NCBI GenBank assembly: GCA_964643945.1 | Contig: CAZXVN010000184.1 | Span: 1 to 18,692, forward strand | Direction: 5' to 3' | Length of the DNA stretch: 18,692 nucleotides | Origin: an uncultured Lentisphaeraceae bacterium | GTDB lineage: Bacteria > Verrucomicrobiota > Kiritimatiellia > RFP12 > UBA1067 | Translations under genes and position numbers: made by a program | Part shown: piece after piece, positions 2,017 to 15,976 of the stretch | Numbering within the stretch: position 1 is the stretch's first letter | How the letters are laid out: each line of letters begins with the position of its first letter | The notes under the pieces: model-generated | Told to the model about the DNA's origin: nothing | Seen by the model: only the letters and a program-made list of their open reading frames with translations | Database searches by the model: none

Positions 2017-2358
2017 TCACCTCCCGCCGTACATCAGCCAACCGGCCACACCTGCAGCGACCAGCAACACAATCACCAGAACGATCATGCCCCAGTAGCT
2101 GCGGTGGCGGCATACGCCCGCTGGCGGCAGCGCCGAATCGATGCGCGTCCGACCGGCCCGCGCGTTGTACTCCTGCTCAAGCGTTTCTTTTCGGTTCACA
2201 AATTTCTCTCTCCCCTTCTGTCTTCTGACTCCTGTCTTCTGTCTTCTGACTTCTGACTCCTGACTCCTGTCTTCTGACTCCTGTCTCCTGACTCCTGACT
2301 TCTGTCTTCTGTCTCTCAAAACACCGCCCCCAGAATCGGCGAGCCGGTCGTGCCGCAC
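2017..2358 (-). CDS. small hypothetical membrane protein; N-terminal part is encoded by heptamer-repeat array 2216-2313 (ER/K-rich) and the C-terminus is a TM helix; start uncertain (alternative GTG at 2199 with GGGGAGAG RBS)
   Basis: ORF in the track. C-terminal MIVLVIVLLVAAGVAGWLMY. It overlaps the 3' end of gene 2316-2957 by 42 nt in another frame. Confidence 0.3.
   Translation of the reverse strand: MRHDRLADSGGGVLRDRRQKSGVRRQESEDRSQESEVRRQKTGVRRQKGREKFVNRKETLEQEYNARAGRTRIDSALPPAGVCRHRSYWGMIVLVIVLLVAAGVAGWLMYGGR
2216..2313 (+). repeat. heptamer array, 14 perfect units
   Basis: Begins 3 nt after the stop of gene 2316-2957. Confidence 0.85.
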
Positions 2359-2957
2359 TCGTTCCAGAGCCCGATCTGCAGGCCGGCGCCGCTCTCGGCG
2401 TGGTTGATCAGGCCGATCTGCAGGCCGCGCAGACGCGTCGCGACATTCCAGATGCCGCCGATCTGAATGCCATTGACCGTATCCGCCCGATTGTGGATAA
2501 ACGTTACTTGAAGGGCGAGGGGCGCGTCGCCTTTAATCCGGTTATAGAGCCCTCCCACCTGGATGCCGCTGAAATCGTTGCAGATGTTGTCGAAAAAGTT
2601 GCAACTGATGCCGGCCGCATCGCCGTTGATCTCGCCGCTCACGCCGACATCAATCCCGTAGATGTCGTTGTGCCCGGCGGGCCAACCCGGCGAGCAGGCG
2701 TTCACACGAAGACCGTAGACGTTCCACCCGCGGGAGTAAGGGATACCCCACTCCAGCACCGTAATCGCGAGCGGGGTCACAGGCCCTTCGTGAGAGGTCT
2801 GCACCGATACGCCACCCGTTGCGCCCATCGGCACCGTGCCGGGCGGCACCGTCGAAGGCGGGGCCGTCTTACCCCCCGGGTTCATGTCCGTCCCGGCTGC
2901 CGCCGCGAGGGCGAGCCCCACCGCGACGCCCGCCGTCACTATTTGTTTCATCTTCAT
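2316..2957 (-). CDS. secreted Gly-rich beta-repeat protein (signal peptide; repeated G-x-Q-I/V-G-G/L-x-N units)
   Basis: Signal peptide MKMKQIVTAGVAVGLALAAAAG; AAGGA RBS upstream. Internal repeats GIQVGGLYN, GIQIGGIWN, GLQIGLINH, GLQIGLWNE. Confidence 0.65.
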   Translation of the reverse strand: MKMKQIVTAGVAVGLALAAAAGTDMNPGGKTAPPSTVPPGTVPMGATGGVSVQTSHEGPVTPLAITVLEWGIPYSRGWNVYGLRVNACSPGWPAGHNDIYGIDVGVSGEINGDAAGISCNFFDNICNDFSGIQVGGLYNRIKGDAPLALQVTFIHNRADTVNGIQIGGIWNVATRLRGLQIGLINHAESGAGLQIGLWNECGTTGSPILGAVF

Positions 2958-2988: not shown

Positions 2989-3876
2989 TCACCGATGGAT
3001 ATTCAGCTCCTCAATCGTGTAAAGCCGGTTGATGATTCCGTCCGGGAAACGGTCGCGGTCATACACGATCCGGGCCTGCAACGTCCTGTTGACGTTATCC
3101 GTCGCAAGGATCGTACAGTCGTAAACCCCGGCGAGCGCGCGCACCCGTTGCGTAAACAGGGTCGGGTATTCCGAGTGAGACGAGAGGAACCAGGCGTTGG
3201 CGATCGTCACCATGCAGATCTCTGCCTTGCCGCCGACCTTCACACACGCGTCCGCCAGCCAGGGCGACACGGTTGTGGCCATCTTGTCGGCCACACTCTT
3301 CAGCGCGTCTCCTGCACCACGTCCGGGCGCGCCCTGCACGTCAAACCGGTTACGCGCCACCATGTCCGTCATCACCTGTTTCGTGATGGCGTTGAACTCC
3401 GGCGAGCGGGTAACAGTCGCATCCACATCGCCCTTATAAACCACCCGCGTACCGCGCGCGTTCAGCGGTTCGCAGGTCACGCCGAGGTCCGCATAGAGCT
3501 CGGCCGGCCCGTCATAGACCACTTTGTAGTTGGCGGCCGCCAGCGCGCCTTGCACGCCGTTGCCGAGCAGCGTCGCAACCTGCGTGGCATCCTGCCCCGC
3601 AGCCACGGGACGCACCCGCACCCGTACCTGCTCCAACACCGCCGACGCCGTGGCGATCTGGGTTTGCGCCGGACGCAGATCCACCGCCGTCGGACGCGCG
3701 CCAACCCCGGTCACCTGCACCGGCTGCGGCGTCACGATCATTCCGGGACTGGCCGTCACGGACACGCCGCCGGCCGTTGTTGCGGGATAGAGCACCGTCT
3801 TCGTTTCCACCGTCCGGCAGCCTGTCATCGCCAGCGCGAGCATGCCGGCACCTGTCACAAACATCATTTTTTTCAT
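2989..3876 (-). CDS. hypothetical lipoprotein
   Basis: Lipoprotein signal MKKMMFVTGAGMLALAMTGC (lipobox LAMTGC). 16-nt gap to the upstream gene and 31-nt gap to the downstream gene. Confidence 0.65.
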   Translation of the reverse strand: MKKMMFVTGAGMLALAMTGCRTVETKTVLYPATTAGGVSVTASPGMIVTPQPVQVTGVGARPTAVDLRPAQTQIATASAVLEQVRVRVRPVAAGQDATQVATLLGNGVQGALAAANYKVVYDGPAELYADLGVTCEPLNARGTRVVYKGDVDATVTRSPEFNAITKQVMTDMVARNRFDVQGAPGRGAGDALKSVADKMATTVSPWLADACVKVGGKAEICMVTIANAWFLSSHSEYPTLFTQRVRALAGVYDCTILATDNVNRTLQARIVYDRDRFPDGIINRLYTIEELNIHR

Positions 3877-3892: not shown

Positions 3893-5110
3893 TCAGCGCA
3901 CGCGGAAAATCAGCCGCGAGGCAAACCAACACACAACGAACACAATCAACAGCAGCACGATGTTGCGCAGCGTGACCAGCGCCAAAAGCTGGTCCACCAC
4001 GTTCTCCTGCAGCACATCCGGCTTGTAAATGCCGCGTCCGCTGGCGGCCGCGACGATCGCGAAGCTGTCGTTGATGTCACGGAACTTCGCGTCGAACACG
4101 ACCTCGGTGCGGATGGCGTTGGCCTTGATTGCCGTCGCCGAGCCCGTCACCGCGCCGATCCGGTCGCCGACCGGATCAACGACCGTCACGGGCGAGGCGT
4201 CCAGCACCGACACCGCGCCGGAAAGCACCGCCACCTTATCGCTGGCCGAACCTCGCTCCCCGCCGATGTCCTGATTGATCCGCTTGAGCAGAGAGTTGCT
4301 GACCTGCCGGTTCGTACCCACACGTTCGCGCAGAAAACGGGCCATCATCCGGTCGCGCACACTGCCGTTGGGGAGGTCAAGCACGCGGATGCTTTGCTCC
4401 TTGGAAAGACAGCGCAGGAAGTTCTGGGTCATGGCCCGGCCCAATGGGCCTTCCAGCGGCAGCACCAGAATCCGGTATCCCGCCAAACGCGAGAGCACCT
4501 GGCTAGCCGCATCTTCCGCCGCCTTCTCCATGGCCATGCGCGTGTTGCGGCTGACCATCTCGTTGTCCGGGCCCGGATCGTCGTAGATGCCCTCGACCGT
4601 TCCCGCCCACAGCCGCTCCGCCGTTTCAATACTGATCAGCCGTAATGAAACCCGCACGCTCGCTTTGCCGGCCCCGTCCGTCGCGTCAATCACACGTCCG
4701 ATGATGAAGGCTTCGGCCATTTTGAAAACGCCCGTTTTCGGCAGCGTCGCGGGATCATAATCGCCGAAGTCCGTGGCGGCGTCAAAGAACCGGTCGACTT
4801 CCGTCCACTCGGCCGCCTGATCCTGATGCGTCAGAAATTCAAACTCGGAAGGCGCCTGCACCAGCCCGTTCTCGAACACCGTTGCGAACTCGTTGCCTTC
4901 GGGAATCTTCGCGTTTCCCCGCATGAGTTTGACGAACGCGATGCGTTTGACTTTCACGCGGCTGTCCGTGGTCATTTGCATGACCGCCTGGAAAGCGGCG
5001 TCCTCCGCTGCGTATGAAAGCTCCCGCGGACCAGCGGTAACCGTCTGAGCGGTTGTGAGAAACCCCACGGTGCCAAGCGCGGCAACCGCGAGACCTGTGA
5101 AACGTTTCAT
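3893..5110 (-). CDS. exported protein with N-terminal signal peptide and C-terminal TM anchor; tandem domains loosely reminiscent of a CsgG/LpoB-type fold (inference)
   Basis: The internal ATG at 5110 has a strong RBS (AAAGGAG, 7 nt spacer). The track ORF 3893-5500 extends further upstream through repeat array 5275-5351, which is unlikely to be coding. Signal peptide MKRFTGLAVAALGTVGFLTTAQTVTA; C-terminal NIVLLLIVFVVCWFASRLIF. Confidence 0.6.
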   Translation of the reverse strand: MKRFTGLAVAALGTVGFLTTAQTVTAGPRELSYAAEDAAFQAVMQMTTDSRVKVKRIAFVKLMRGNAKIPEGNEFATVFENGLVQAPSEFEFLTHQDQAAEWTEVDRFFDAATDFGDYDPATLPKTGVFKMAEAFIIGRVIDATDGAGKASVRVSLRLISIETAERLWAGTVEGIYDDPGPDNEMVSRNTRMAMEKAAEDAASQVLSRLAGYRILVLPLEGPLGRAMTQNFLRCLSKEQSIRVLDLPNGSVRDRMMARFLRERVGTNRQVSNSLLKRINQDIGGERGSASDKVAVLSGAVSVLDASPVTVVDPVGDRIGAVTGSATAIKANAIRTEVVFDAKFRDINDSFAIVAAASGRGIYKPDVLQENVVDQLLALVTLRNIVLLLIVFVVCWFASRLIFRVR

Positions 5111-6235: not shown

Positions 6236-6326
<91 letters not shown>

Positions 6327-6346
6327 TTTTTCCCTTAAACGCCGCT

Positions 6347-6482: not shown

Positions 6483-7694
6483 TCACAACGTTCCCCCGGC
6501 CTCCAGCCAATCAGGAAGATACAGACGCCGCACGCCCTCGTAATCGTCGCCCGCCTCGCGGTCGAGCGTGAGCAACACCTTCGGATAGTTGTCTTTAACC
6601 GCCAGCAGCGGCGCGGTCTCCCGCTCGACCGTCGCCTTCGTCGGCAACAGATACGCGACCTGGATATACGTCTTCTTGCCCTCGCGCTCGGCCACGAAAT
6701 CGATCTCGAGATCGCCAACCCGCCCGACAGACACACGACAGCCCCTGCGCAGAAGCTCGAGACAGACCACATTCTCGAGCACTCCCCCGATATCGTCCGC
6801 ACGGTGTCCGAGCAAGGCCGTACGCAACCCCAGATCGCCGACATAGTGCTTCTCGTTCACCTCCAGATGCCGCCGGCCCTTGATATCGTACAGCAGCACC
6901 CGGTGGGTCAGGTGCGCCTCCGCGAACCACCGCATGTAATTCAGGATGGTGTCCACCCCCACGGAAAGTTTCTGACTCTTCAGAAACGCGTTGATCCGGC
7001 TGGCGTTCGTGAGATTGCCGATGTTGTCGAAAATATACCGCCCCACCTTTTCGAGCAGGGCGTAGTTCCGCACCTGATGACGCCGCACAATGTCCTTCAG
7101 CATGATCGTGTCGTAAACGCCCGTGACAAACGGCAGGAACGTCGCCTCGGCAAGCGGCCCGAACTCGTGCAGGCCGGGCAGCCCGCCATAGCGCAAGAAG
7201 GCCCTGAACGCCTCGGCTGTTTCCGTTTTCCGCAACCCGTTGAACGCCCGGAACTCCGTAAAGGAAAGCGGGTAGACCTGCACCTCCACGAACCTTCCCG
7301 CCAGCAGCGTGGCCAGCTCGCCGGAAAGCATCCGGGCGTTCGACCCGGTGATCACCACGTCCATGTCGCGCCGCCCGGACCCGTCCGCAACGATCCGCTC
7401 CCAGCCCTCGATCTCCTGGATCTCATCCACGAAAACGTGGCAGACCCCCTTGCCTTTCGGGCACGCGGCTTTCACATGCGCCGCCAGATCATGATACGTG
7501 CGGATCGCGTCGAACGCATACGACTCCTTGTCGACGTAGACGATCCGCTCCCGCCTCACCCCGTCCGCGACCAGCTTGTCGATCAGCCGGACCAGACAGC
7601 TCTTGCCCGAACGCCGCATCCCGGTGACGACCTTCACCACCGGCTTGCCCAGAAACGGCTCGATCTGCTTCACATAGAGATTTCGCTTATACAC
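6483..7694 (-). CDS. AAA_14 / DUF4143 family ATP-binding protein
   Basis: GTG start with AAGGAG RBS 8 nt upstream. Walker A GMRRSGKS, Walker-B-like HVFVDEIQ, and the long C-terminal region typical of the DUF4143 family. Confidence 0.8.
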   Translation of the reverse strand: MYKRNLYVKQIEPFLGKPVVKVVTGMRRSGKSCLVRLIDKLVADGVRRERIVYVDKESYAFDAIRTYHDLAAHVKAACPKGKGVCHVFVDEIQEIEGWERIVADGSGRRDMDVVITGSNARMLSGELATLLAGRFVEVQVYPLSFTEFRAFNGLRKTETAEAFRAFLRYGGLPGLHEFGPLAEATFLPFVTGVYDTIMLKDIVRRHQVRNYALLEKVGRYIFDNIGNLTNASRINAFLKSQKLSVGVDTILNYMRWFAEAHLTHRVLLYDIKGRRHLEVNEKHYVGDLGLRTALLGHRADDIGGVLENVVCLELLRRGCRVSVGRVGDLEIDFVAEREGKKTYIQVAYLLPTKATVERETAPLLAVKDNYPKVLLTLDREAGDDYEGVRRLYLPDWLEAGGTL

Positions 7695-7735
7695 GACAAA
7701 AACTCCTTAATGCCGATTCCTTTTGATATGGACGA

Positions 7736-7764
7736 AATATATCATAACCCGTCACCGCACACAA
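7736..7764 (-). promoter_or_regulatory. candidate promoter for 6483-7694 (minus strand: TTGTGT, 17 nt, TATATT)
   Basis: Read directly on the minus strand, about 45 nt upstream of the GTG start. Confidence 0.3.
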
Positions 7765-7771
7765 CCAGGTG

Positions 7772-7921
7772 TTACCCGGCCCGCGTCGCGTCCTCATTCA
7801 TCGTCTGCTGCCTGTTGTCCACCAACACGTTCGCTGGCTTGATGTCGCGGTGGACCACGCCCTGCCCGTGCGCGTATGCCAAAGCCTCCGCCACCTGCCC
7901 GCCCCACCACACGTCCAGCAT
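7772..7921 (-). pseudogene. relic fragment of a Ser/Thr kinase gene (subdomain VIb: [25 protein letters not shown])
   Basis: A 49-codon minus-strand [52 protein letters not shown]. The nucleotide sequence is similar to 9527-9600 of kinase 8023-10128. No N- or C-terminal kinase lobes flank it. Confidence 0.5.
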
Positions 7922-8022
7922 CGCACTCCGCTCGGGGTTCGTACCTTACCCTCGTCCCCACCGATTCCCGCAGCTCCCCTCAACTAATGCACTTCTCGCA
8001 CTAATGCAACAATACACTTCTT

Positions 8023-10128
8023 CTACTGACCTGGGAGAAGGACAGCCCGGAACCCGATCCTGGAGTCGCGGTGGTTCGGTTTGCGGCCGCCGCGGTCCGC
8101 AACCCGGCAATCGCCCGCGTAGCCGCGCCAACTGCCGCCGCGGGCCACGCGGGGCGAGCCCGACGTCGGACCTGCGGGATCAGTCACACTCCCGGACGGA
8201 TAATCGCCGTACCAGTCCTGGCACCACTCCCACACGTTGCCGAGCATGTCGTAAAGACCCCAGGCGTTCGCCTGTTTCTGCCCTACAGCATGCGTCACCT
8301 GCCCACTGTTGCCGCTATACCAGCCCATATCCAGAGCTCCTGCATACGATCCCACCGCCCCCGCTCGACAAGCATACTCCCACTCCGCCTCCGTCGGCAG
8401 CCGAAACCGTCCCCCGGGAGGGACGCGCGTCTGCGCGTCCGCCAGCTTCGCGTTCAGCTTCCTCATAAACTCCTGACAGTCCTCCCAACTCACCTTCTCC
8501 ACCGGCAAATCAGCGCTCTTAAAGTTGCTGGGGTTGGTGCCCATGACTGCCCCCCACTGCCGCTGCGTCACCTCGGTCTTCCCCATCCAAAACCCCTTAG
8601 TAAGCGTCACCCGGTGCTGTGTCTCGTCTTTAGACCGGCCCGTTTCGCTTTCGGGACTCCCCATCATAAAGCTACCCGCCGGGCACCACGCCAGCTCGAT
8701 CTTCACGCCGCCGCCGAGGTCTAAAGTCTCCGTGTCGCCAGGGTTATGTCCGGCCTTCTGCACGGCGGCGCTTGCCACCTTTAGCCTCTCGCTTTCAGCA
8801 GCCAACGCTTCCTGCTTATGCGTTTCTTCCTGCTCGGACGCCGGACGCGCAGACGCGCGTCCCTCCGAGGCGTTAACGGGAGGGTCAAGCGTCTGCTTGA
8901 CCGCAAGACGCGCCTGTATCTCATGCCGGTTCCAAAAAGCCGCGAACCCATAGGCGGTCACAGCCGCAACCGCTCCAGCCGCAACCCACAGCCACGCCTT
9001 CCTCTTTCCTCCGCCATCCGCCTTCTGGCCACCGCCCTCTGGCTCCCGACGCCCGACGCCCGACTCACGACTCTCGACTCCCTGTCTTACGACCTCCACC
9101 TTCCAGTTTCTCTCCCCCTGCCCTCCGGCACCCTTTCCCGCCAGCGCCTTCACAAATTCCCCGCAGCTCGCGAACCTCTCCCCCGGCTCTTTTGCCAGCG
9201 CCCGCAACAGCGCCGCGTTGACATGCGCCGGCACGCCTTCCAGCGGACGGGGTGCCTCTTTCAGCACCGCCTCGCGCAGCACCGCTGTGTCGTGGCCCTC
9301 GAAGGGCGGCGACCCGCCCACCAGCTCGTAGACCGTCGCCGCCAGCGCGTACTGGTCCGCGGGCGCGCCCTGCGGCCGCCCCTGCCACTGCTCCGGCGCC
9401 ATGTAGGGTCCCGTGCCGCTCGTGCCGTGGGTGGTCTGGCTCACGCGGCTCAGGCTCATGTGCAATTGCGCCGCGAGCCCGAAGTCCAGCACCTTCACCT
9501 CGCCCGCGAAGTTCACCCGCACGTTGCTCGGCTTGATGTCGCGGTGGATCACGCCCTGCTCGTGCGCGAAGTCCAGCGCCTCCGCGATCCGGTAGGCGAT
9601 GATCGTCACCTCGTCCAGCGTCAGCGGCCGGCCCTCCTCGCGCCGCCGCCGCACCCACTGCCGCACGTCGTAGCCGTCCACGCACTCCATGACCAGATAA
9701 TAGTCGCCCGTGACCGGATCCTTCTCCAGCGTGTTGACGTTGGCGATGTTCGGGTGGTGGAGCTTCGAGACCAGCCGGAAGTTCTCGCGCACCTCCTCCA
9801 TCTCGCCGCTGTTGTGCCCCACCTCCGGAGGCAGCGCCTTCAGCGCCACATCCAAGCCCGCCACCTCATCGTGGCAGCGGTACACCACGCCCATGCCGCC
9901 CTGCCCAAGCTCCCCCTCCACCCGGTAGCGCCCCAAAAGCACCTCGCCGGCCGCTAGGCGCCGCCCCGCAGGCCCCGCCCCGCCCGGCCGCATCGTCTTG
10001 ACGCTGCCTAGGCTCAAGTCATCCGCGGGTGCGCTCCCGCCATGCCGCAGGGTCGGCGAATCGCCCAGGCTGCGGTCGTCCGGCGGCTTGCCGCCCATCG
10101 TCTTTTGATTGCCGATCGAGTTATCCAT
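8023..10128 (-). CDS. Hanks-type Ser/Thr protein kinase - TM - FGE-sulfatase (SUMF1-like) domain fusion
   Basis: LGQGGMGVVY, ALK, HRDIKPSNV, DFGLA, YMAPEQW; TM segment WLWVAAGAVAAVTAYGFAAF; C-terminal FGE-like region (GSFMMGSP ... GLYDMLGNVWEW ... RGGSW). The start is uncertain because there is no clear RBS at 10128. Confidence 0.85.
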   Translation of the reverse strand: MDNSIGNQKTMGGKPPDDRSLGDSPTLRHGGSAPADDLSLGSVKTMRPGGAGPAGRRLAAGEVLLGRYRVEGELGQGGMGVVYRCHDEVAGLDVALKALPPEVGHNSGEMEEVRENFRLVSKLHHPNIANVNTLEKDPVTGDYYLVMECVDGYDVRQWVRRRREEGRPLTLDEVTIIAYRIAEALDFAHEQGVIHRDIKPSNVRVNFAGEVKVLDFGLAAQLHMSLSRVSQTTHGTSGTGPYMAPEQWQGRPQGAPADQYALAATVYELVGGSPPFEGHDTAVLREAVLKEAPRPLEGVPAHVNAALLRALAKEPGERFASCGEFVKALAGKGAGGQGERNWKVEVVRQGVESRESGVGRREPEGGGQKADGGGKRKAWLWVAAGAVAAVTAYGFAAFWNRHEIQARLAVKQTLDPPVNASEGRASARPASEQEETHKQEALAAESERLKVASAAVQKAGHNPGDTETLDLGGGVKIELAWCPAGSFMMGSPESETGRSKDETQHRVTLTKGFWMGKTEVTQRQWGAVMGTNPSNFKSADLPVEKVSWEDCQEFMRKLNAKLADAQTRVPPGGRFRLPTEAEWEYACRAGAVGSYAGALDMGWYSGNSGQVTHAVGQKQANAWGLYDMLGNVWEWCQDWYGDYPSGSVTDPAGPTSGSPRVARGGSWRGYAGDCRVADRGGRKPNHRDSRIGFRAVLLPGQ
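9044..9114 (+). repeat. degenerate heptamer-periodic array (TCCCGAC/GCCCGAC/TCACGAC/TCTCGAC...) lying in-frame inside kinase 8023-10128
   Basis: 7-nt periodicity read directly. It encodes VEVVRQGVESRESGVGRRE at the position homologous to the ER/K inserts of kinase 1-1391. Confidence 0.5.
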
Positions 10129-10151
10129 GGTGTTTGCTTGAGAAACCAGAT

Positions 10152-10165
10152 GTCAGGAGTCAGAA
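10152..10165 (-). repeat. reverse-orientation heptamer copy (gtcagga gtcagaa); inverted partner of 10191-10232
   Basis: Read directly. Confidence 0.5.
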
Positions 10166-10190
10166 TGCGTGCATCTTTCACCGCATTTCA

Positions 10191-10232
10191 TTCTGTCTTC
10201 TGACTTCTGTCTCCTGACTCCTGTCTTCTGTC
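10191..10232 (+). repeat. heptamer array, 6 units, in the Vps4-like to kinase spacer
   Basis: ttctgtc ttctgac ttctgtc tcctgac tcctgtc ttctgtc. Confidence 0.8.
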
Positions 10233-10234
10233 GC

Positions 10235-11353
10235 CTATCCGAACCGCGCCTGCCTGAACTTTTCGAACTCGCGCAGCATCGCTTCCGTGATCGAGCTGGG
10301 GACGCGCCGCCGCGCCTCCTCGAAGTCCCCTGCCGTCAAAACAGGATCGCCATCTTCAAGCACGGCGCGGCCGAGCGCAAGGCGCTTGGCCGTGTTCACG
10401 ACCGCCGCCACGTCGCTCCCGGAAAAGCCCTCCAGCGCCTCCGCCAGCGCGCCTCCATCCACCGCCTCGCCGCACACGGCGCTTCCCAGATGCTTTTTGA
10501 AAATGCCCAGCCGAGCCTCGGCGTCCGGCGGCCCGATGAAAATCTTCTCGTCGAAACGCCCCGTGCGGAACACCGCCTCGTCGATCTCCCACGGCTTGTT
10601 CGTGGCGCCCAGGATCAACAGCACGTTCTTCGTCTCGCGGAAACCGCCCACATCCGCCAGGAACTGCGTCACGATGCGGTGGTCGGCACCGGAGGTGCCG
10701 TCGTCGCGCTTGGGCAGCAGCGCCTCGACCTCGTCCAGAAACAGCACCGCCATCGGCTGCTCCTGAGCCGTGCGGATCAGCCGGCTCAGCCGCTGCTCCG
10801 ACTCGCCGTACCACTTGGACCGCAACTGCGCGCCCGAGGCATAGTAGAACGGACACTCCAGCACTCCCGCCACCGCCTTGCCCAGCATCGTCTTGCCGGT
10901 GCCGGGAGGGCCGTACACCAGCACGCCCCCGCCCGGATTCAGCCCCAGCGCCCGCGCTTTCTCGGGGCTCTTCATCGGATACACCACCATCTCGTGGATC
11001 ACGCGCTTCGCGTCGGCCATGCCCGCAATGTCGTCGAATGTCACGTCCGGCTTCTCCGCCACCAGCCACTCGTCGCCGTCGGAAGGCTCGACGCTCGACT
11101 CACGACCAGCGACGGGCGAATGCTGACCGCCGCCCGCCGACTGCCGCTTCTTTAGCTCATTCGCCAGCGCCACCCACCCCTCCGCGTCCTGCGCGTGCGC
11201 CTCGGCCACAGGCCCGCTGCTGCGCTCCGCCAGCGCGAAGCCGCACTCCGCCGCGCGCGCCGCCGCCGCCGCCGCACGCCCGTAGTCGCGCACCTTGACG
11301 AACTCCGCGCAGGCGTTCTCGTGCCCCGTTTTGATCTCAACCATCGAGCGCAT
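10235..11353 (-). CDS. Vps4-like (meiotic clade) AAA+ ATPase with ~100-aa N-terminal extension (possible MIT-like domain)
   Basis: Walker A GPPGTGKT; pore loop 1 SKWYGESE (the Vps4/spastin/katanin signature); Walker B LFLDEVEA; GATNKPWEIDEAVFRTGRFD; C-terminal helix MLREFEKFRQARFG (compare the Vps4 C-terminal ...W..EFG). The start follows the upstream gene's stop by 12 nt, with RBS GAGAGGGGA. Confidence 0.85.
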   Translation of the reverse strand: MRSMVEIKTGHENACAEFVKVRDYGRAAAAAARAAECGFALAERSSGPVAEAHAQDAEGWVALANELKKRQSAGGGQHSPVAGRESSVEPSDGDEWLVAEKPDVTFDDIAGMADAKRVIHEMVVYPMKSPEKARALGLNPGGGVLVYGPPGTGKTMLGKAVAGVLECPFYYASGAQLRSKWYGESEQRLSRLIRTAQEQPMAVLFLDEVEALLPKRDDGTSGADHRIVTQFLADVGGFRETKNVLLILGATNKPWEIDEAVFRTGRFDEKIFIGPPDAEARLGIFKKHLGSAVCGEAVDGGALAEALEGFSGSDVAAVVNTAKRLALGRAVLEDGDPVLTAGDFEEARRRVPSSITEAMLREFEKFRQARFG

Positions 11354-11365
11354 CGTTGTCCCCTC

Positions 11366-11989
11366 TCACTTCAGCATCTCGCGCACCTTCTCCTGGCCGC
11401 CGCCGATGCGGCGTTCCAGATCGGAAGAGGTCTTCGCGCTCACGCCGGAAATGTCGGCGGACACCTCCTGCTCCAGCGATTTCGTCAGCTCCTCCATGGA
11501 CGGGATGTGGTCCTGCATGTTGCCTGTCGCGCCTTCCATCTCCTTGTCGTACAGCGACGCCCAGAAGCGGTCCGCGTCCTGCTGCTCGCCCAGCAACTCG
11601 CCCGCCGTGTCGAACACGTCCTCGACCATTTCCGGATTGATGTCCGTTACCTTGTTGACCGCCGCCAGTGCGCTGGCGAACTCGGCGTCGGTCCCGGCGG
11701 TCTCCATCTTCATGAGATACTGCTCGAACACCCAGCGCTTCTGCTCCAGCTTGGTCATCAGCACCTGCGCCGCGCGGTAGCTGGTCAGGGAGCGCTGCGC
11801 GGCCGCCTTCTTTCCTTCCTTGAGCGCGTCCCGCGCCTTCTGCCAGTCCGCCTCCGCGTCCTTCTCCATACGCTTGGCGCGGTCTTTCACATCCTGCACC
11901 GCGTTCTCCGCCTGCCGGAACGCCCGCCGCCGGTCCTTGCGCACCGCCCGCTCTTTTTCCTTCTTCGTCTTGATGAATAGAAAACTCAT
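11366..11989 (-). CDS. ESCRT-III / Snf7-family (PspA-Vipp1 superfamily) protein
   Basis: 207 aa. N-terminus MSFLFIKTKKEKE resembles the CHMP/Snf7 MxxLFGK motif. Basic helical N-half (KDRRRAFRQAENAVQDVKDRAKRMEKDAE...KEGKKAAAQRSL) and acidic C-half (PEMVEDVFDTAGELLGEQQDAD...). C-terminal SSDLERRIGGGQEKVREMLK resembles a MIM1 (D/E)xxLxxRL motif. Strong RBS AAAGGAG. The next gene downstream is the Vps4-like ATPase. Confidence 0.65.
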   Translation of the reverse strand: MSFLFIKTKKEKERAVRKDRRRAFRQAENAVQDVKDRAKRMEKDAEADWQKARDALKEGKKAAAQRSLTSYRAAQVLMTKLEQKRWVFEQYLMKMETAGTDAEFASALAAVNKVTDINPEMVEDVFDTAGELLGEQQDADRFWASLYDKEMEGATGNMQDHIPSMEELTKSLEQEVSADISGVSAKTSSDLERRIGGGQEKVREMLK

Positions 11990-12008
11990 ACCATGCTCCT
12001 TTCTGAAC

Positions 12009-12043
12009 AGCAGAAGACAGAAGTCAGAAGACAGAAGTCAGAA
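12009..12043 (-). repeat. reverse-orientation heptamer array, 5 units; inverted partner of 12082-12154
   Basis: cagcaga gacagaa gtcagaa gacagaa gtcagaa. Confidence 0.8.
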
Positions 12044-12081
12044 TAAACACGTCGAGAAAGTCGCTTTTGTCGATCGTTCCA

Positions 12082-12154
12082 TTCTGATTCCTGACTCCTG
12101 ACTTCTGTCTCCCGTCTCATTCTGACTTCTGACTCCTGTCTCCTGACTCCTGCC
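12082..12154 (+). repeat. heptamer array, ~10 units, in the FHA to ESCRT-III spacer
   Basis: ttctgat tcctgac tcctgac ttctgtc tcccgtc ... ttctgac ttctgac tcctgtc tcctgac tcctgcc. Confidence 0.8.
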
Positions 12155-12157
12155 GTC

Positions 12158-13735
12158 TCACAGCCCATACTGACTAAACGTCTTGACCTCGATCTGCACG
12201 CCGCCCGCGCCGATCCGCGTGCCGGGCACCAGCCACCCCGCCGCACCCTCCGCACGCCAGGCGAACGCGCCGCGCTCGTGGCACACCGTCACCCCCTCGC
12301 ACCCCGGCAGAATGTTCCCGAGATCCAGGCAGGACCACATCACCGCATAGACCTCCGACACCGCGTCCCGGCGCCGCAGGATGACCGCAGGCGTCTTGCC
12401 GCGGTGGCACATCTTCTCGTCGCGCCCCCCGCACGCCGCGCACCGCGCCGTATCGAAAAAGCAGCCGTGCGCCGTCAGCCCGAAATCGTATGCGTCCGCC
12501 GTGCCCGCCAACCCCAGCGCGGCCACTGCGGGAAAACGGTCCGCCGGAAAGCGCTCGCTGCCCTTGACCGCCCGACCCTGCCAGAAAACCCCGCAGGCGG
12601 AGGCTTGCATCACACCGTTCTCAGTCCGCACACCGTCATGCACAATGCACTGCCCGTCGGCGTACTCCAGCGTGCAGTGAAACTTGCTGATGCGCGCGTT
12701 GCGTTCAGGAAGGGCCTCGCCGTCCGGCTCGAACAACCGCGTCACGATCTGATTGGCGCGGTTCTTGCCCAATGTGACCCGACTTCCCGCGATCAGATGC
12801 GCAATCCGGTTCCCGACGCGAAGAGTCACCCGCTCGGCCGTCGCCGCCGCAGGTGCCGCAGGCAGCGGGTGATGCAGCACCCAGCCCGACTCAAAAAGAC
12901 TCAGCCGGTGAAACGCCGGCGGCTTGGAGTGCAGCAGGTTCAGCAGTTCCTCGATCGAATGGGCCTGCCCGTTCTTGACCAGCTTGCTCACCGCCTCGGC
13001 CGCGTCCTGGTGTACACGGATATCCGCCGCATGCCCGGCCTTGATGTCGTTGTTGATGTTGAAGGTGATGTTGTCCGCGACCTGCTTGGTCGAACAGTCC
13101 GCCGGATAAACGAACAGGCATACCTCGGTCTCGTATGTGGTGGTCTTGCCGTCTTTCGTCAGCCCGAAGTAGACCGACGCCGAGAACGCGCCGTGATTCA
13201 TGGGATGCACCGGCAGGTTGATCCCGCGCGGCACCCCGAGCTTGGGGTTCGGCCAGTTGAAGGGATGCTCGACCACCTGAGAGATCCCGTTCGGCTTGAG
13301 CCACACGCGGACGTGCTGGACACCCTCGACAAGCGGCGTCAGCCGGAAGCGCACCAGCGCGCTGGCACCCGCCACGCAGAACGCCAGGGTGTCGCTTTCC
13401 ACACACAGCCACGGGCAATCCCCGAAGCCGTCATCGTCCGTGCCGACGCTCTGCGCCGCCGCAGTCCGCTCATTGACGGGTTCGGTGTTGAGCAGAATGA
13501 TCCGGGCCGGCCGCTCGTCAGGATCTGGCGTCCTGATGATCGCGGCAACCGCCGACGGCGCCTCGCCCACGGAATCGCCCGGCCTCCGCAGATAAGTCGG
13601 CTCCGGCCGGAAACCGCTCTCGGCTTCCGCAGGCGTTGCCGCCGACGGACCCGGCGCCAGCGGCGCGCCGCATCTGTCGCAGAACGAGCCCTCTACCGTC
13701 TTCCCTCCGCATGTCCGGCAACTCACCCGAGCCAT
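12158..13735 (-). CDS. zinc-ribbon + FHA-domain protein with Cys-rich C-terminal region
   Basis: N-terminal CRTCGGKTVEGSFCDRCG. FHA-like core GKNRANQIVTRL...RISKFHCTLEYADGQCIVHDGVRTENGVMQASACGV. C-terminal CAACGG...C..GCEGVTVC. RBS GAGGAG 8 nt upstream; the start lies 12 nt after the upstream stop. Confidence 0.7.
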   Translation of the reverse strand: MARVSCRTCGGKTVEGSFCDRCGAPLAPGPSAATPAEAESGFRPEPTYLRRPGDSVGEAPSAVAAIIRTPDPDERPARIILLNTEPVNERTAAAQSVGTDDDGFGDCPWLCVESDTLAFCVAGASALVRFRLTPLVEGVQHVRVWLKPNGISQVVEHPFNWPNPKLGVPRGINLPVHPMNHGAFSASVYFGLTKDGKTTTYETEVCLFVYPADCSTKQVADNITFNINNDIKAGHAADIRVHQDAAEAVSKLVKNGQAHSIEELLNLLHSKPPAFHRLSLFESGWVLHHPLPAAPAAATAERVTLRVGNRIAHLIAGSRVTLGKNRANQIVTRLFEPDGEALPERNARISKFHCTLEYADGQCIVHDGVRTENGVMQASACGVFWQGRAVKGSERFPADRFPAVAALGLAGTADAYDFGLTAHGCFFDTARCAACGGRDEKMCHRGKTPAVILRRRDAVSEVYAVMWSCLDLGNILPGCEGVTVCHERGAFAWRAEGAAGWLVPGTRIGAGGVQIEVKTFSQYGL

Positions 13736-13747
13736 AAGTTATTCTCC

Positions 13748-15418
13748 TCAATGCACGATCGTCTGCGGCTGGGCCGCCTGCCGTTTGGCAGCCTCCACCG
13801 CCGGCTCGAGCATCGTTTTCAGGTTCTTGTCCTGCCGGTCGTTGGCATCCGCGTAGAGCTTCTTCATCTCAGCCAGCAGCATCTCGGCGTTCTGCCTGGT
13901 GCGGTCGCTCATCTTGCCGAGCGCCTCCGCCGCCGCCGGGCTGCTGTGCGCCGCCTCGGCCAGGATCTGCTCGGGCGTCATCGTGCGGTTGCGCTCCACC
14001 ATCATCAGCTCGACCAGCTGACGCCGCAGGGCGGGATCGTCCACATCCGCCAGCATCTGCTCCGTGGTCATCCCCGCACGCCGCTTGGCCTCAGCCGCCT
14101 TGCGCTCCAGCTCTATCCCGTCTTTCCGGGAACGCATGTCCAGCGCCCACTCCGCCTCGGTCTTCTCCTGCTGGAACGTCTCGTTCCGGGCCTTGGCCTG
14201 CGCGTTGGCCTGCTTCACGGCAAGCTCAAGATTGTAATCGTCCCATTTGACCTTGACGCCGATCGCCTGCTCCGCCTTCTGGTTCTCGACATCGTGCCGG
14301 TGCCGCAGATCGTCCAGCTCGTTCAGATGCGCATAGCCGCGCAGCAGCACCGTCCGCTCCTGCTCGCGCTGGGCCTGCGCGATGCCGTGCTCGTGCGCGG
14401 CCTGCTCCTCGTACTCCAGCAGGTCGGTCTTGTCCTTGAACTGGGCCATCGCCTCTTTGTTCAGCAGCCCGCGCATGGCCGACGCGTACTCCAGCTCGCG
14501 CCGCTTGATGTCCACCTCGCCGAGCCGCTCCGCGTACTCCTCGTACTCGTCGCCCGTGAACTCCGCCGACGACACGCGCACCACCTGCAGGCCGTACCGC
14601 CCGATGTCCTCGCCGATCGCCCGGACCATCGTCTCCTGCAGGCGCAGCCGCCGCTCAGGATCGCGCACAAGGTCATCCAGCGTAGAGGTCACGCACAGCG
14701 CGTCCACCGCCGCGCGCACCGCCCCCTGCAGCGCCTCGGAAAGATCCTTGTACGCCAGATGACGCCGGTCCTTGAGCCCGTTCTCCAGCAGCGCCAGCGC
14801 GGCGGCCTTGTCATTGCCGAACCGCAGGATCACCTCGCCGTAGAACTCGATCGGGTGATGCTCCGCCGTACGCAGACCGGTCACGCGCAGCGGCAGCGCC
14901 ACGTCGCCGCAGTCGGCCATCACTGCCGAGCGCGGGGGCGGGTCGCCGAACCAGTTGATCTTGCGCGCCAGGCTGTCCGGGTTGTGACGGCCGCTCTCGA
15001 GGATGCCGTGGATGTGGCCGCCGTCCAGCACCACCGCCACCGTGCCCTCCTGCACCATCAGGTCGTCCTGCAAGAGCCGCTTGATGTCGCCGATCTCGAA
15101 GCGCTGCGCGAACAGCCCCGGATCCTTGCGCCACACGCCGCCGGCCATCACCGCGCGGTCTTCCGGGAAGAGCGGGGTGTTGCAGTGCGAGCAATACTGC
15201 GACGCGTTGCCGATCCACTTCTTGCACGAGGGACACTTCCACCAGCCCCCCGGCGCGGGCACGCCGCACTTGTTGCAGAAGCGCGCGGCCTTGCGCACCG
15301 AATTGCCGCAGCGCGCCCACTTCGGATCCAGTTTCGCCTGCGCCAAGGCCTCGCCGCCCAGCGCCCGCCCCGTCCGGGGGTCGATCAAAGCGTCACACCG
15401 GTCACTGAATATGCCCAT
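13748..15418 (-). CDS. zinc-ribbon + SPFH (band-7 / flotillin-like) protein with long C-terminal coiled coil
   Basis: Two CxxC pairs (CGNSVRKAARFCNKCG, CPSCKKW...CSHCNTP), then an SPFH core (QEGTVAVVLDGGHIHGILESGRHNPDS ... GLQVVRVSSAEF), then ~250 aa of E/K/R/A-rich coiled coil. RBS AAAGGCGAGGT. Confidence 0.75.
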   Translation of the reverse strand: MGIFSDRCDALIDPRTGRALGGEALAQAKLDPKWARCGNSVRKAARFCNKCGVPAPGGWWKCPSCKKWIGNASQYCSHCNTPLFPEDRAVMAGGVWRKDPGLFAQRFEIGDIKRLLQDDLMVQEGTVAVVLDGGHIHGILESGRHNPDSLARKINWFGDPPPRSAVMADCGDVALPLRVTGLRTAEHHPIEFYGEVILRFGNDKAAALALLENGLKDRRHLAYKDLSEALQGAVRAAVDALCVTSTLDDLVRDPERRLRLQETMVRAIGEDIGRYGLQVVRVSSAEFTGDEYEEYAERLGEVDIKRRELEYASAMRGLLNKEAMAQFKDKTDLLEYEEQAAHEHGIAQAQREQERTVLLRGYAHLNELDDLRHRHDVENQKAEQAIGVKVKWDDYNLELAVKQANAQAKARNETFQQEKTEAEWALDMRSRKDGIELERKAAEAKRRAGMTTEQMLADVDDPALRRQLVELMMVERNRTMTPEQILAEAAHSSPAAAEALGKMSDRTRQNAEMLLAEMKKLYADANDRQDKNLKTMLEPAVEAAKRQAAQPQTIVH

Positions 15419-15589: not shown

Positions 15590-15949
15590 TCAGTCTGACT
15601 TCTGTCTTCTGACTTCCGGCTTCTTCTCCCCATGTGCCCCGCACACTCGCACGCCCTGCCGTTTCCAGCAATCGAAACAGACCGGCGCGCCGCAGACCGT
15701 GCAGGCCTGCTGCAGCGCGCCCTTGCTCCGGTAATAGGTGCCGCACGCCTCGCAGGTCCCGCCTTCGGCGGCCTCCCGCTTGCTGCGGCTCAAATAGTCG
15801 CCCAGATCCGTCCGCGAGACCCGGTACAGCTTGCCCAGGCGCGCGGCGGGCAGCTCGCCCGCGCGCACCAGCCGGTAGATGAGTTGATAGGTCACGCCCA
15901 TCTCGTCCGCTACCTCCTCCAGGCTCAGATGCTCTTTGTCCGTCGGCAT
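15590..15949 (-). CDS. HTH_17 (MerR/excisionase-family) DNA-binding protein with C-terminal zinc ribbon; putative regulator and first gene of string 1
   Basis: LSLEEVADEMGVTYQLIYRLVRAGELPAARLGKLYRV (helix-turn-helix), then CEACG...CTVCG..CFDC...C. The preferred start is the ATG at 15949 with GGAGGTG 7 nt upstream; the track's 15955 is a GTG inside the RBS. The last codons read into repeat array 15594-15621. Confidence 0.65.
   Translation of the reverse strand: MPTDKEHLSLEEVADEMGVTYQLIYRLVRAGELPAARLGKLYRVSRTDLGDYLSRSKREAAEGGTCEACGTYYRSKGALQQACTVCGAPVCFDCWKRQGVRVCGAHGEKKPEVRRQKSD
15594..15621 (+). repeat. heptamer array, 4 units, forming the C-terminus of the regulator gene
   Basis: gtctgac ttctgtc ttctgac ttccggc; encodes ...PEVRRQKSD*. 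Confidence 0.75.
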
Positions 15950-15976
15950 ATACACACCTCCTCTTAAAACGCCGCC

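Follow-up and report, generated by a model that had tools for sequence, protein, structure and literature searches.

Does a bacterial genome encode a Snf7-type ESCRT-III protein together with a Vps4-like ATPase of its own? Makarova et al. (2024, PMC10936438) report no ESCRT components in bacteria other than PspA/Vipp1, and a review (PMC7619361) describes bacteria as having no Vps4-like ATPase acting on ESCRT-III. The question is raised by two neighbouring genes in the window, by which we mean the whole 18,692-nucleotide stretch analysed here, for which the original prediction proposed an ESCRT-III/Vps4 pair. Both open reading frames were found where expected, on the minus strand and 12 nt apart (Table 1), and the spacer, GAGGGGACAACG, looks from its sequence like a ribosome-binding site for the ATPase gene. 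The 207-residue product of the first gene begins, as foreseen, with MSFLFIKTKK and ends in ...SSDLERRIGGGQEKVREMLK. The public annotation of this contig (GCA_037141315.1, JBAXCU010000023.1) is in agreement, but places the ATPase start three codons later; the upstream Met is kept in homologues. In two relatives, L040 and L045, the spacer gives way to a 4-nt overlap. Elsewhere in the window, the ORF at 274-966 is spurious, being another frame of an overlapping kinase gene, while no Pfam family matches those at 12278-15463(+) and 6357-8468(+), which are antisense shadows.

Table 1. Features of the window, listed in the direction of transcription.
Feature	Position	Strand	Evidence
Promoter-like site ahead of HTH_17 gene	16006-15977	-	Promoter scan, 10/12 matches
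HTH_17 protein (winged-helix type) with Cys-rich C-terminus, first cluster gene	15590..15955	-	HTH_17 E 1.4e-11
Double zinc ribbon + SPFH/Band 7 + long coiled coil, 556 aa	13748..15418	-	Band_7 E 2.7e-7 (above GA), DZR E 3.5e-5
Zinc ribbon ... FHA protein, 525 aa	12158..13735	-	FHA E 0.009 (weak)
FHA/Snf7-like intergenic spacer, inverted heptamer arrays, long hairpin	11995..12157	-	RNA fold -66.5 kcal/mol, z -5.56
Snf7-type ESCRT-III-like protein, 207 aa	11366..11989	-	Pfam Snf7 family matches, AF2 model, Foldseek, charge split
12-nt spacer, Snf7-like stop TGA to ATPase ATG	11354..11365	-	Sequence, RBS-like
Single-cassette AAA ATPase, 372 aa	10235..11353	-	Starts 12 nt after Snf7-like stop
ATPase N-domain, residues 1-72, predicted three-helix bundle	11138..11353	-	AF2, conservation
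ATPase linker, residues 73-95, low-complexity, variable length	11069..11137	-	AF2, alignment
Classical AAA cassette + lid + C-terminal helix, residues 96-372	10235..11068	-	PF00004 E 2.9e-35, AAA_lid_3
Heptamer-array hairpin directly 3' of ATPase stop codon	10130..10234	-	RNA fold -37.4 kcal/mol, z -4.45
Ser/Thr kinase fused to FGE-sulfatase domain, 701 aa	8023..10128	-	Pkinase E 4.7e-42, FGE-sulfatase E 7.3e-44
AAA_14/DUF4143 ATPase	6483..7694	-	Pfam; PADLOC PDC-S01 E 9e-138
Zn-ribbon + coiled-coil protein, 315 aa	5232..6179	-	No Pfam family
Secreted protein, signal peptide + C-terminal TM helix, 405 aa from MKRFTG, conserved distal member	3893..5110	-	Weak LpoB-like region, E 0.043
Predicted lipoprotein, LAMTGC lipobox, 295 aa, distal member	2989..3876	-	Sequence; 11 loci
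Secreted protein, G-x-Q-x-G-x-x-N repeats, 213 aa, distal member	2316..2957	-	Sequence; 5 loci

The 207-residue protein is a bacterial member, from the PVC superphylum, of the Snf7 branch of the ESCRT-III superfamily. The Pfam Snf7 model (PF03357) matches it with an E-value of 4.5e-4 and 20.4 bits, below the GA of 27.3; in the wider family, 27 of 28 members match the same model at E <=0.01, consistently over the same region and with Snf7 as the only family matched, and PF03357 is already present on many relatives in precomputed annotation. PspA_IM30 (PF04012) matched neither the window protein (E up to 0.1) nor any of the 28 relatives (E up to 0.01). The best matches of the family profile in the PDB were yeast Snf7 and the Heimdall (Asgard) ESCRT-IIIB. 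In the AF2 model (pLDDT 73) helices span residues 8-56, 60-95, 100-114, 121-133, 138-149 and 164-205, giving the long α1-α2 hairpin and the shorter α3-α5/6 helices of the ESCRT-III fold. A Foldseek search with the protein yielded members of the ESCRT-III superfamily as all of its top 21 matches, the probabilities for CdvB2, ESCRT-IIIB, CHMP1B, IST1 and Snf7 lying above those for PspA (0.77) and Vipp1 (0.30). The original prediction of a true Snf7-type protein is thereby borne out.

The distribution of charge is equally characteristic of CdvB and other ESCRT-III proteins, with which the PVC protein shares a basic core and an acidic tail. The hydrophobic-basic N-terminus, MSFLFIKTKKEKER, is followed by the basic helical hairpin and then by the acidic C-half: residues 1-95 have a net charge of +13 and a pI of 10.4, residues 96-207 a net charge of -15 and a pI of 4.2. 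This division, noticed already in the original prediction, recurs across the 28 relatives, with N-halves of +9 to +15 and C-halves of -12 to -22. The suggestion that the C-terminal DLERRI serves as a MIM1 was rejected, since that motif is not conserved among relatives. The element that is kept in the tail is the basic G-x-x-R-V-K-x-L-L (also written G-Q-E-K/R-V-R/K-x-L/M-L), not a canonical MIM1 or MIM2; a 193-residue subgroup of the family is without the conserved tail.

Judged by its motifs and its model, the partner is a classical AAA ATPase whose single cassette is catalytically intact and has an aromatic pore loop; a flexible linker joins the cassette to a small helical N-domain. Its core carries Walker A (GPPGTGKT), the pore loop K180-W181-Y182-G183, Walker B residues D207-E208, the sensor-1 residue N252, arginines R263/R266 and a C-terminal helix at 357-371, and none of the catalytic and pore residues varies among 33 relatives. 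In the AF2 model, three helices at the N-terminus are followed by a disordered linker, then by the AAA domain and the C-terminal helix. The Vps4/spastin/katanin signatures attributed to it, SKWYGESE, GATNKPW...FRTGRFD and EFEKFRQARFG, are all present, but two of them are shared with Cdc48 D2: SKW.GESE, since Thermoplasma VAT D2 has SKWVGESEK as its pore loop, and the C-terminal helix, which aligns with p97 D2 ...SVSDNDIRKYEMFAQT.

Vps4_C (PF09336) reached E 0.063 and 13.7 bits (GA 21.3) and was not among the families recurring in the 33 relatives. The NCBIfam CdvC model NF041006 scored 191 bits (cut-off 650), below the CDC48 model TIGR01243 at 211 bits (cut-off 803). A whole-sequence PDB ranking headed by p97 was set aside in favour of per-domain scores, because yeast Vps4 itself reaches 314-344 bits with those two-cassette chains. 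By phmmer, p97 D2 then scored 187.4 bits, VAT D2 178.3, yeast Vps4 168.7 and p97 D1 151.2, and it is to p97 D2 that the C-terminal half is closest. For comparison, Foldseek identities were 31-32% to M. sedula Vps4 and 33-37% to p97. The arginine-finger region (SRH) of the window family, AVFRTGRFDEK, has the length of RPGRFD in p97, VAT and FtsH, and the Vps4 form (..RRRF.., with adjacent arginines and two residues shorter than in Cdc48/FtsH) is not found in it; a second PVC subfamily, of L040 type, has an SRH shorter by two residues, but with a single Arg.

The per-domain scores, SRH length, SKW.GESE and C-terminal helix motif liken the enzyme to the D2 cassette of Cdc48/p97/VAT. Unlike those proteins, which have two tandem cassettes and a double-psi-barrel N-domain, it has a single PF00004 stretch, no D1 and a helical N-domain. 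In neighbour-joining trees, none of which contained archaeal Vps4, the family never fell inside Cdc48 D1 or D2; it was sister to Vps4+katanin+spastin and outside that clade, with support of 85% for 18 taxa, 38% for 48 and 32.5% for 40. The neighbour clades for these trees came from a representative-library search. Since scores add up over cassettes, its 150 best matches were without exception multi-cassette Cdc48-like proteins; it was uninformative on single-cassette relatives and was used for no other purpose. In these trees the ATPase, whose phylogeny the original prediction had called for, stands beside the meiotic clade and not inside Vps4, a placement that is not robust.

The N-terminal extension, envisaged as some 100 residues that could be a MIT-like domain, proved to be about 95 residues long, with three predicted helices (4-20, 24-43 and 47-71; pLDDT 60-85) and a linker in which residues 74-95 are predicted to be disordered (pLDDT <50), but no sequence comparison found a MIT domain in it. 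Searches by phmmer and hmmsearch against the PDB gave no MIT match, Pfam scans of 21 N-domains gave none to MIT (PF04212) even with E-values as high as 10 allowed, and a comparison with the yeast Vps4 MIT by hhalign was negative. As modelled, the N-domain would be compatible with MIT in fold class alone, that of three helices. Its residues E12, C15, A27, A28, A31, A35, L41, R44, G47, A52 and W60 are invariant. MIT is the top match of a related tandem-AAA protein, P0254 (E 0.014, below GA), and a family variant, P0261, has TM helices in place of the N-domain.

Of the proposed cognate Vps4, therefore, the architecture stands: a single cassette with aromatic pore loop 1, a helical N-domain with linker and an ESCRT-III gene alongside. 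The MIT and Vps4_C results, the CdvC model and the SRH length speak against the name, and the tree position is not robust. Vps4-like in architecture and in context is the most fitting description of the enzyme, which belongs to a separate bacterial AAA clade that these sequence comparisons file neither under Vps4/CdvC nor under Cdc48 D2.

The pair is only the middle part of a conserved cluster, some ten genes in all, that goes beyond what was first described: HTH_17, Zn-ribbon-SPFH, Zn-ribbon-FHA, Snf7-like, AAA, Zn-ribbon coiled-coil, envelope and Ser/Thr kinase proteins. The HTH_17 gene heads the cluster in 17 loci. The Zn-ribbon-SPFH gene lies upstream of the Snf7-like gene in 21 of 40 loci, and is present also in L044; the Zn-ribbon-FHA gene is likewise found in 21 of 40, and five of six orthologues of its product match FHA above GA (best E 4.6e-12). 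The Zn-ribbon coiled-coil gene is the third most conserved neighbour (27 of 40 loci), usually directly after the ATPase or directly before the Snf7-like gene. Four orthologues of its product matched no Pfam family, and the idea that it is a second ESCRT-III paralogue was rejected on an hhalign probability of 0.5% against the Snf7-like family. The gene for the 405-residue secreted protein occupies the same position in L008, L018, L022, L023 and L044. Kinases recur at varying positions, flanking the cluster in L044 and L045; in the window a second one extends from about 1440 to 1 and runs off the end. The AAA_14/DUF4143 gene was judged to be an insertion rather than part of the system, given a GC dip to 0.56 and its absence from the uninterrupted L044 cluster; a paralogue is inserted elsewhere in L001. 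Rfam returned nothing for the core genes.

The locus resembles known ESCRT loci. As in archaeal CdvB/CdvC and eukaryotic ESCRT-III/Vps4, a Snf7-family gene stands directly upstream of one for a single-cassette classical AAA ATPase, which shares with CdvC/Vps4 the small helical N-domain, flexible linker, K-W-x-G pore loop and C-terminal helix. Unlike CdvC/Vps4, the PVC enzyme has no detectable MIT, no Vps4 beta-domain and no significant Vps4_C, and the SRH of the window subfamily is of Cdc48 length; unlike Cdv and ESCRT, the system is bacterial and without CdvA or ESCRT-I/II. The euryarchaeal ESCRT loci termed Halo_FHA, Main and Meth_adaptin contain SPFH with Zn ribbon and coiled coil, FHA and STK (Makarova et al. 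2024, PMC10936438). The PVC cluster parallels them in its FHA, Ser/Thr kinase, SPFH-Zn-ribbon-coiled-coil and zinc-ribbon proteins and its winged-helix head gene, a comparison of domain content with the text of that paper which does not imply orthology. It differs in that no adaptin-like Ig/TBP proteins were seen, and in having further genes, for periplasmic proteins and lipoproteins, that would fit a diderm envelope.

Among bacterial systems, PspA-PspF and the B. subtilis PspA-YdjGHI (with the SPFH protein YdjI) also link an ESCRT-III-superfamily protein to SPFH, and for Psp to an AAA+ protein as well; PspF, however, is a sigma-54 activator, whereas the PVC ATPase is of the classical clade. 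Unlike PspA/Vipp1, the PVC protein matches Snf7 and never PspA_IM30, and has no PspB, PspC or Toastrack partners. A survey of PSP systems (PMC11237479, Text S2.2) proposed that some bacterial Snf7/PspA-clade proteins act with AAA+ proteins in ATP-dependent membrane remodelling. Its examples are of two kinds: in one, seen for instance in Opitutus, a VPS4-like ATPase occurs with a TPR-6TM protein in the place of snf7; in the other, ABC transporter genes and a two-domain ATPase accompany PspA or a divergent, membrane-anchored Snf7. The survey does not contain the soluble Snf7-type protein, single-cassette ATPase and SPFH/FHA/kinase cluster of PVC bacteria, and our literature search found no paper on this PVC system.

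We consider it probable that the pair lies at the heart of a conserved PVC cluster for an ESCRT-like membrane-remodelling module, with a Snf7-like polymer and an AAA partner. The Snf7-like protein would polymerise on the cytoplasmic face of the inner membrane, binding lipid through its FLF-basic N-terminus and basic hairpin, and its acidic C-half would be autoinhibitory. Helix 3 of the N-domains of an ATPase hexamer would dock on the Snf7-like C-terminal tail, whereupon that protein would be threaded through the K-W-Y-G pore and the polymer remodelled or disassembled, as by Vps4/CdvC. The SPFH protein might act as scaffold of the membrane site, and kinases and FHA protein could provide phosphorylation-dependent recruitment. 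The process served may be repair, vesicle or invagination formation, or division.

Physical linkage bears on whether the ATPase acts on the Snf7-like protein at all. The host genomes are MAGs labelled Kiritimatiellia, Lentisphaeria, Verrucomicrobiota and Planctomycetota, and a survey of the kind originally suggested found the two genes on one strand in 30 of 40 species-level PVC genomes. Seven of the ten genomes without the ATPase have <2.6 kb downstream, leaving 30 of 33 informative loci; in the other three it is missing despite 8 kb. The ATPase might instead act on another cluster product (SPFH, FHA, Zn-ribbon coiled-coil or a kinase substrate) or as a general unfoldase, adjacency reflecting a shared operon only. 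Consistent with this, other genes, often kinases, intervene in 10 loci (a kinase does so in L022), the order is inverted in two, neither MIT nor MIM is recognisable by sequence, and the closest solved relatives, p97 and VAT, are general unfoldases. Yet the pair is immediately adjacent (<=800 nt) in 18 loci, overlapping in the two noted above, and the pairing outlasts replacement or divergence of the AAA core: it is kept in the second ATPase subfamily, where core identity is 31-38%, N-domain identity 28-44% (36-44% in three of four comparisons) and that of the Snf7-like partner 43-59%. Furthermore, a basic Snf7-like tail (median net charge +2) accompanies an acidic N-domain helix 3 (median -1) in 23 loci, while in eight an acidic tail, ...LEKEL (-2), accompanies a basic helix 3, SWRxLAKKL (+1). 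This complementary swap suggests direct contact, as far as sequences can indicate it, although it is confined to one clade and may represent a single evolutionary event. A substrate other than the Snf7-like protein is therefore rather unlikely, and the remodelling module remains the preferred reading.

Less probable still is a role of the cluster in anti-phage defence or abortive infection, with its kinases as sensors of infection and its ESCRT-III-like and SPFH proteins acting on the membrane. The Ser/Thr kinases do match the PADLOC PD-T4-6 and mad6 models, the DUF4143 ATPase, of candidate system PDC-S01, lies inside the cluster, HTH_17 stands at its head, and accessory content and insertions differ among genomes. 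The kinase matches are, however, generic kinase-domain matches; the Snf7-like, SPFH, FHA, Zn-ribbon coiled-coil and envelope proteins have no match in PADLOC, and for the AAA ATPase the matches are confined to general AAA-ATPase models (IetA, E 2.8e-30, and TRIP13). Moreover, the 40 species-level genomes keep the gene order at 44-92% identity, a pattern that looks more like vertical descent than patchy spread, no relative occurs on 2.9 million viral contigs, and the window has no integrase or transposase.

That the 207-residue protein is a generic helical hairpin or coiled coil with no ESCRT-III-like polymer role, its Snf7 matches being compositional, is highly improbable in view of family matches to Snf7 alone that extend down to E 4.4e-9, the Foldseek ranking and an N-terminal motif, helix order and charge split that are typical of ESCRT-III.

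The membrane-remodelling module would bring to bacteria a Snf7-type protein with a dedicated and apparently co-evolving AAA partner, a pairing previously held to be limited to archaea and eukaryotes, and one conserved across at least 40 PVC species as regards the Snf7-like locus, with the ATPase in 30. The date of the ESCRT-III/unfoldase partnership becomes testable, as do the possibility that Vps4 arose from a Cdc48 D2-like single-cassette enzyme already serving ESCRT-III and the manner in which an ESCRT-like machine works in a diderm bacterium. The predicted interface between basic tail and acidic helix 3 has a natural charge-swapped clade and is open to simple mutants. More tentatively, PVC bacteria might possess a complete, vertically inherited ESCRT-like machine, comprising winged-helix, SPFH and FHA/kinase control, a Snf7-type ESCRT-III and a Vps4-like unfoldase, with the ATPase at the base of the Vps4/katanin/spastin clade. 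If so, the ESCRT-III/AAA partnership would not be an archaeal invention, and would either predate the split between archaea and bacteria or have been exchanged between domains as a whole module. With this cluster, membrane remodelling in the PVC superphylum has a concrete molecular candidate, and such a machine could drive the long-debated membrane invagination and vesicle formation of PVC cells.

The pair under study comprises the gene for a 207-aa Snf7-type ESCRT-III protein and, 12 nt (GAGGGGACAACG) after its stop codon, the gene for an AAA ATPase. The window corresponds to contig JBAXCU010000023.1 (GCA_037141315.1), whose public annotation is consistent with our own gene calls. All results are computational, with structure models of moderate confidence. 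In a scan sample of one genome per species, the Snf7-like gene is present in 40 genomes, all of them MAGs of PVC bacteria with the labels Kiritimatiellia, Lentisphaeria, Victivallales or Verrucomicrobiota, and is accompanied by a same-strand ATPase gene in 30. Seven of the ten genomes without the ATPase have less than 2.6 kb of downstream sequence; only at three loci (L006, L015 and L017) is it absent despite 8 kb being available. The gap between the two genes is 800 nt or less at 18 loci, and at ten more they are separated by an insert of 1.1-5.6 kb, for example a TM Ser/Thr kinase (locus L022) or a DUF4143 ATPase (locus L001).

The pair is the conserved centre of a larger cluster, whose recurring members are listed in the table. 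Locus L044 has the order unbroken: two STK-FGE genes, HTH_17, DZR+Band_7, a 524-aa protein, the 207-aa Snf7-like protein and the AAA ATPase, followed by proteins of 303, 274, 383 (LpoB-like) and 221 aa and then bPH_2. In the window this order is broken by a kinase, a kinase remnant and a DUF4143 ATPase. The repeat protein, the lipoprotein and the TM-anchored LpoB-like protein are the cluster's periplasmic arm; the first, of 213 aa, carries four G-[IL]-Q-[IV]-G-[GL]-x-x-N repeats and matches no Pfam family. Immediately upstream of the cluster lies a HEAT-repeat gene, not found in the related loci, and the region's best sigma-70-like site precedes the HTH_17 gene.

Features of the window and of related loci (window positions unless a locus is named)
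Feature	Position	Strand	Loci	Remarks
Snf7-like gene	11366-11989	-		207 aa, MSFLFIKTKKEKER...GGGQEKVREMLK
AAA ATPase gene	10235-11353	-		372 aa
HTH_17 protein			17	recurring neighbour
Double-Zn-ribbon SPFH coiled-coil protein			21	recurring neighbour
Zn-ribbon ... FHA protein			21	recurring neighbour; FHA above GA in 5/6 orthologues, best E 4.6e-12
Zn-ribbon coiled-coil protein			27	recurring neighbour
Secreted LpoB-like protein	3893-5110	-		recurring neighbour; TM anchor
Lipoprotein	2989-3876	-	11	recurring neighbour
Secreted repeat protein	2316-2957	-	5	recurring neighbour
Ser/Thr kinases	vary			recurring neighbours; frequently FGE-sulfatase fusions
HEAT-repeat protein	16518-17615	-		HEAT_2 E 2.5e-20
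Sigma-70-like site	15977-16006	-		TTGACA-18-TAAGAT
Kinase	8023-10128			
Kinase remnant	7817-7897	-		27 aa; public call, 49-aa ORF
AAA_14/DUF4143 ATPase	6483-7694	-		PADLOC candidate PDC-S01, E 9e-138
Second Ser/Thr kinase-FGE gene	~1440 to 1	-		42% identical
Heptamer arrays	239-369, 782-817, 2215-2315, 5274-5359, 5967-6008, 6236-6328, 10191-10232, 12083-12152, 15599-15611			
Heptamer array	12011-12043	+		
RNA hairpin	10130-10240	-		inverted heptamer arrays; -37.4 kcal/mol, z -4.45
RNA hairpin	12005-12154	-		inverted heptamer arrays; -66.5 kcal/mol, z -5.56
Second-subfamily ATPase	L040 5726-6871			
Second-subfamily ATPase	L044 7001-8119			
Second-subfamily ATPase	L045 7001-8113			

The DUF4143 gene, which lies inside a local GC dip, looks insertion-prone, a paralogue being inserted elsewhere in L001 (8904-10058), where it separates the ATPase from the Snf7-like gene. 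The kinase remnant, which matches residues 180-206 of the kinase beside it at 67% identity, sits between that kinase and the DUF4143 gene, which suggests that a kinase gene was disrupted by the insertion. The second kinase-FGE gene extends past the left end of the window, and an ORF at 274-966 was rejected as a spurious shadow of it. That the whole cluster is a defence system seems improbable: PADLOC gives no match for the Snf7-like, SPFH, FHA, Zn-ribbon coiled-coil or envelope proteins and matches the AAA ATPase to general AAA-ATPase models only (IetA, TRIP13), no relatives occur on viral contigs, and gene order appears vertically conserved.

Tandem heptanucleotide arrays of WCAGRAG (coding strand; this includes AGGAG) occupy nearly every cluster spacer in the window, where 55 matches to the two-unit pattern were observed against 0 expected. 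Some continue in frame inside ORFs to give 7-aa repeats of the 'RSQKTED' type; in the 5232-6179 product, for example, such repeats separate the Zn ribbon from the coiled coil. Of the 45 loci fetched, L001 alone matches the two-unit pattern, and does so once; it has a different, period-14 array (GAGGTCGGAGATCA) in the same place upstream of the Snf7-like gene. The arrays have no Rfam match. The two predicted RNA hairpins flank the pair on both sides, and may be processing, stability or attenuation elements that separate it within the operon.

All motifs cited in the original prediction were found in the window proteins, and the basic N-half and acidic C-half that it ascribed to the 207-aa protein are borne out (residues 1-95 net +13, residues 96-207 net -15), the split being kept in 28 relatives (+9 to +15 and -12 to -22, respectively). 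Taken alone, the window protein has Snf7 as its sole Pfam match (E 4.5e-4), its 20.4 bits falling short of the gathering score (27.3). The family is large, with 709 database clusters at E <=1e-3, and Snf7 is matched by 27 of 28 aligned members, the best (E 4.4e-9) reaching about 37 bits as inferred from the E-value ratio, above the gathering score; none of the 28 matches PspA_IM30. Compared with solved structures, the family profile has as its best matches the yeast Snf7 core (E 0.044), Heimdallarchaeal ESCRT-IIIB and full-length Snf7. In the AlphaFold model (pLDDT 73), helices 8-56 and 60-95 form a long hairpin and four shorter helices come after it, an ESCRT-III fold, and its first 21 Foldseek matches are ESCRT-III-superfamily structures, ahead of any unrelated protein, in the order CdvB2, Asgard ESCRT-IIIB, CHMP1B, IST1, CdvB, Snf7, then PspA and Vipp1. 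Since the Foldseek E-values are weak (at least 0.056), the Snf7-type identity is based on concordance, with no lone score decisive: the HMM matches, the fold ranking, the order of the helices, the N-terminal motif and the charge split agree. This evidence disfavours the rival view of the protein as a generic coiled coil.

The ATPase contains a single PF00004 cassette (E 2.9e-35) together with AAA_lid_3, and Walker A, K180-W181-(Y)-G183, D207-E208, N252, R263 and R266 are invariant across 33 relatives. In its model (pLDDT 66), N-terminal helices 4-20, 24-43 and 47-71 (pLDDT 60-85) are joined by a disordered linker (74-95) to the AAA fold, and helix 357-371 is terminal, a predicted layout that is the Vps4 architecture. 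The N-terminal extension had been proposed as MIT-like, and does form three helices in the model, but four kinds of sequence test gave no MIT signal. The motifs taken as Vps4/spastin/katanin signatures proved common to Cdc48 D2 too (VAT D2 has SKWVGESEK), and the supposedly Vps4-like terminal helix also aligns with p97 ...SVSDNDIRKYEMFAQT. The Vps4_C score (E 0.063) does not recur across the family; among NCBIfam models, CdvC gives 191 bits (cut-off 650) and CDC48 211. Per-domain phmmer scores are 187.4 bits for p97 D2, 178.3 for VAT D2, 168.7 for yeast Vps4 (its sequence checked as identical to 5uie_A) and 151-153 for D1 domains. The arginine-finger region (SRH), AVFRTGRFDEK, has the Cdc48/FtsH length, that of Vps4, katanin and spastin being shorter by two residues, and Foldseek identities to p97 (33-37%) and M. 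sedula Vps4 (31-32%) indicate about equal closeness. The ATPase is thus Vps4-like in architecture and context, but belongs to Vps4 by no curated model, with MIT, Vps4_C, the CdvC model and SRH length all against membership. In one family variant, P0261 (696 aa, Logan), about 410 residues with several hydrophobic TM-like segments replace the three-helix N-domain, a region compatible with action at a membrane.

Neighbour-joining trees were built from the AAA cassettes of a few verified references, archaeal Vps4 not among them: the sequences of human VPS4B, spastin, katanin and E. coli FtsH were checked with PDB chains, and printed alignments supplied the p97 and VAT domains. The 18-taxon tree makes Vps4+katanin+spastin the sister group of the PVC family, with 85% bootstrap; support for this position is lower in bigger trees, at 38% (48 taxa) and 32.5% (40 taxa). 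In none does the family fall inside D1 or D2. Its grouping with uncharacterised tandem-AAA proteins receives 88% with 48 taxa versus 10% with 40.

A second ATPase subfamily, typified by that of locus L040 (34% core identity to the window ATPase), comprises about 29 clusters, one labelled Planctomycetota, and has an SRH shorter by two residues with a single Arg. Its gene directly follows one from the same Snf7-like family (hhalign probability 100%, 43-59% identity), with a 4-nt overlap at L040 and L045; the L045 cluster also holds a caspase-like (Peptidase_C14)-Sel1 protein. Between the subfamilies, N-domain identity is 36-44% in three of four comparisons and 28% in the fourth, and core identity 31-38%. 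Conservation of an accessory domain about as strong as that of the catalytic core is unusual, and points to a binding partner of the N-domain that is itself conserved.

A candidate partner is provided by comparing charges at 31 loci with both genes, tail charge being that of the last 14 residues. At 23 of these the Snf7-like protein ends in a basic G-x-x-R-V-K-x-L-L (median net +2, range 0 to +3), and helix 3 of the ATPase is acidic around an invariant Trp (..AEGWLEIAEKL; median -1). At the other eight the Snf7-like protein is cut short, with ...LEKEL as its acidic end (-2 to -3), and helix 3 is basic in all eight ATPases (..SWRxLAKKL; median +1). These eight form one group, mainly rumen and gut Kiritimatiellae, so that the swap possibly reflects one evolutionary event. 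The pattern is a lead that the Snf7-like tail may touch helix 3 of the N-domain. Together with the tight coupling of the two genes, this covariation disfavours another protein of the cluster as the ATPase substrate.

A 2025 review of bacterial and archaeal ESCRT-III states that a Vps4-like ATPase 'appears absent in bacteria' (PMC7619361), and Makarova et al. 2024 found ESCRT homologues not identifiable among bacteria (PMC10936438); no description of the PVC system was found in the literature searched. Euryarchaeal ESCRT loci contain FHA proteins and Ser/Thr kinases together with an SPFH protein that has a coiled coil and a zinc ribbon (PMC10936438); by domain content the accessory set of the PVC cluster is the same. 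A PSP survey described bacterial VPS4-like ATPases with a TPR-6TM gene replacing snf7, and PspA or a membrane-anchored divergent Snf7 alongside two-cassette ATPases, and suggested ATP-dependent remodelling (PMC11237479); these are a partial precedent for the idea, and none for the PVC system. One of the tandem-AAA proteins that grouped with the PVC ATPase at 88%, P0254 (locus L041, 5223-10115, Logan SRR14863687, from a low-GC organism), has an N-domain whose best Pfam match is MIT (E 0.014). Upstream of its gene are encoded a protein with Band_7_1 and a double Zn ribbon, a small TM protein and a pair of helical proteins, each about 200 aa long. One of this pair begins MGIF..., ends DDEISRIKKMLD and matches the Snf7-like family with an hhalign probability of 19%. 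The combination of an SPFH-Zn-ribbon protein, small ESCRT-III-like proteins and an AAA ATPase may be a broader theme among bacteria.
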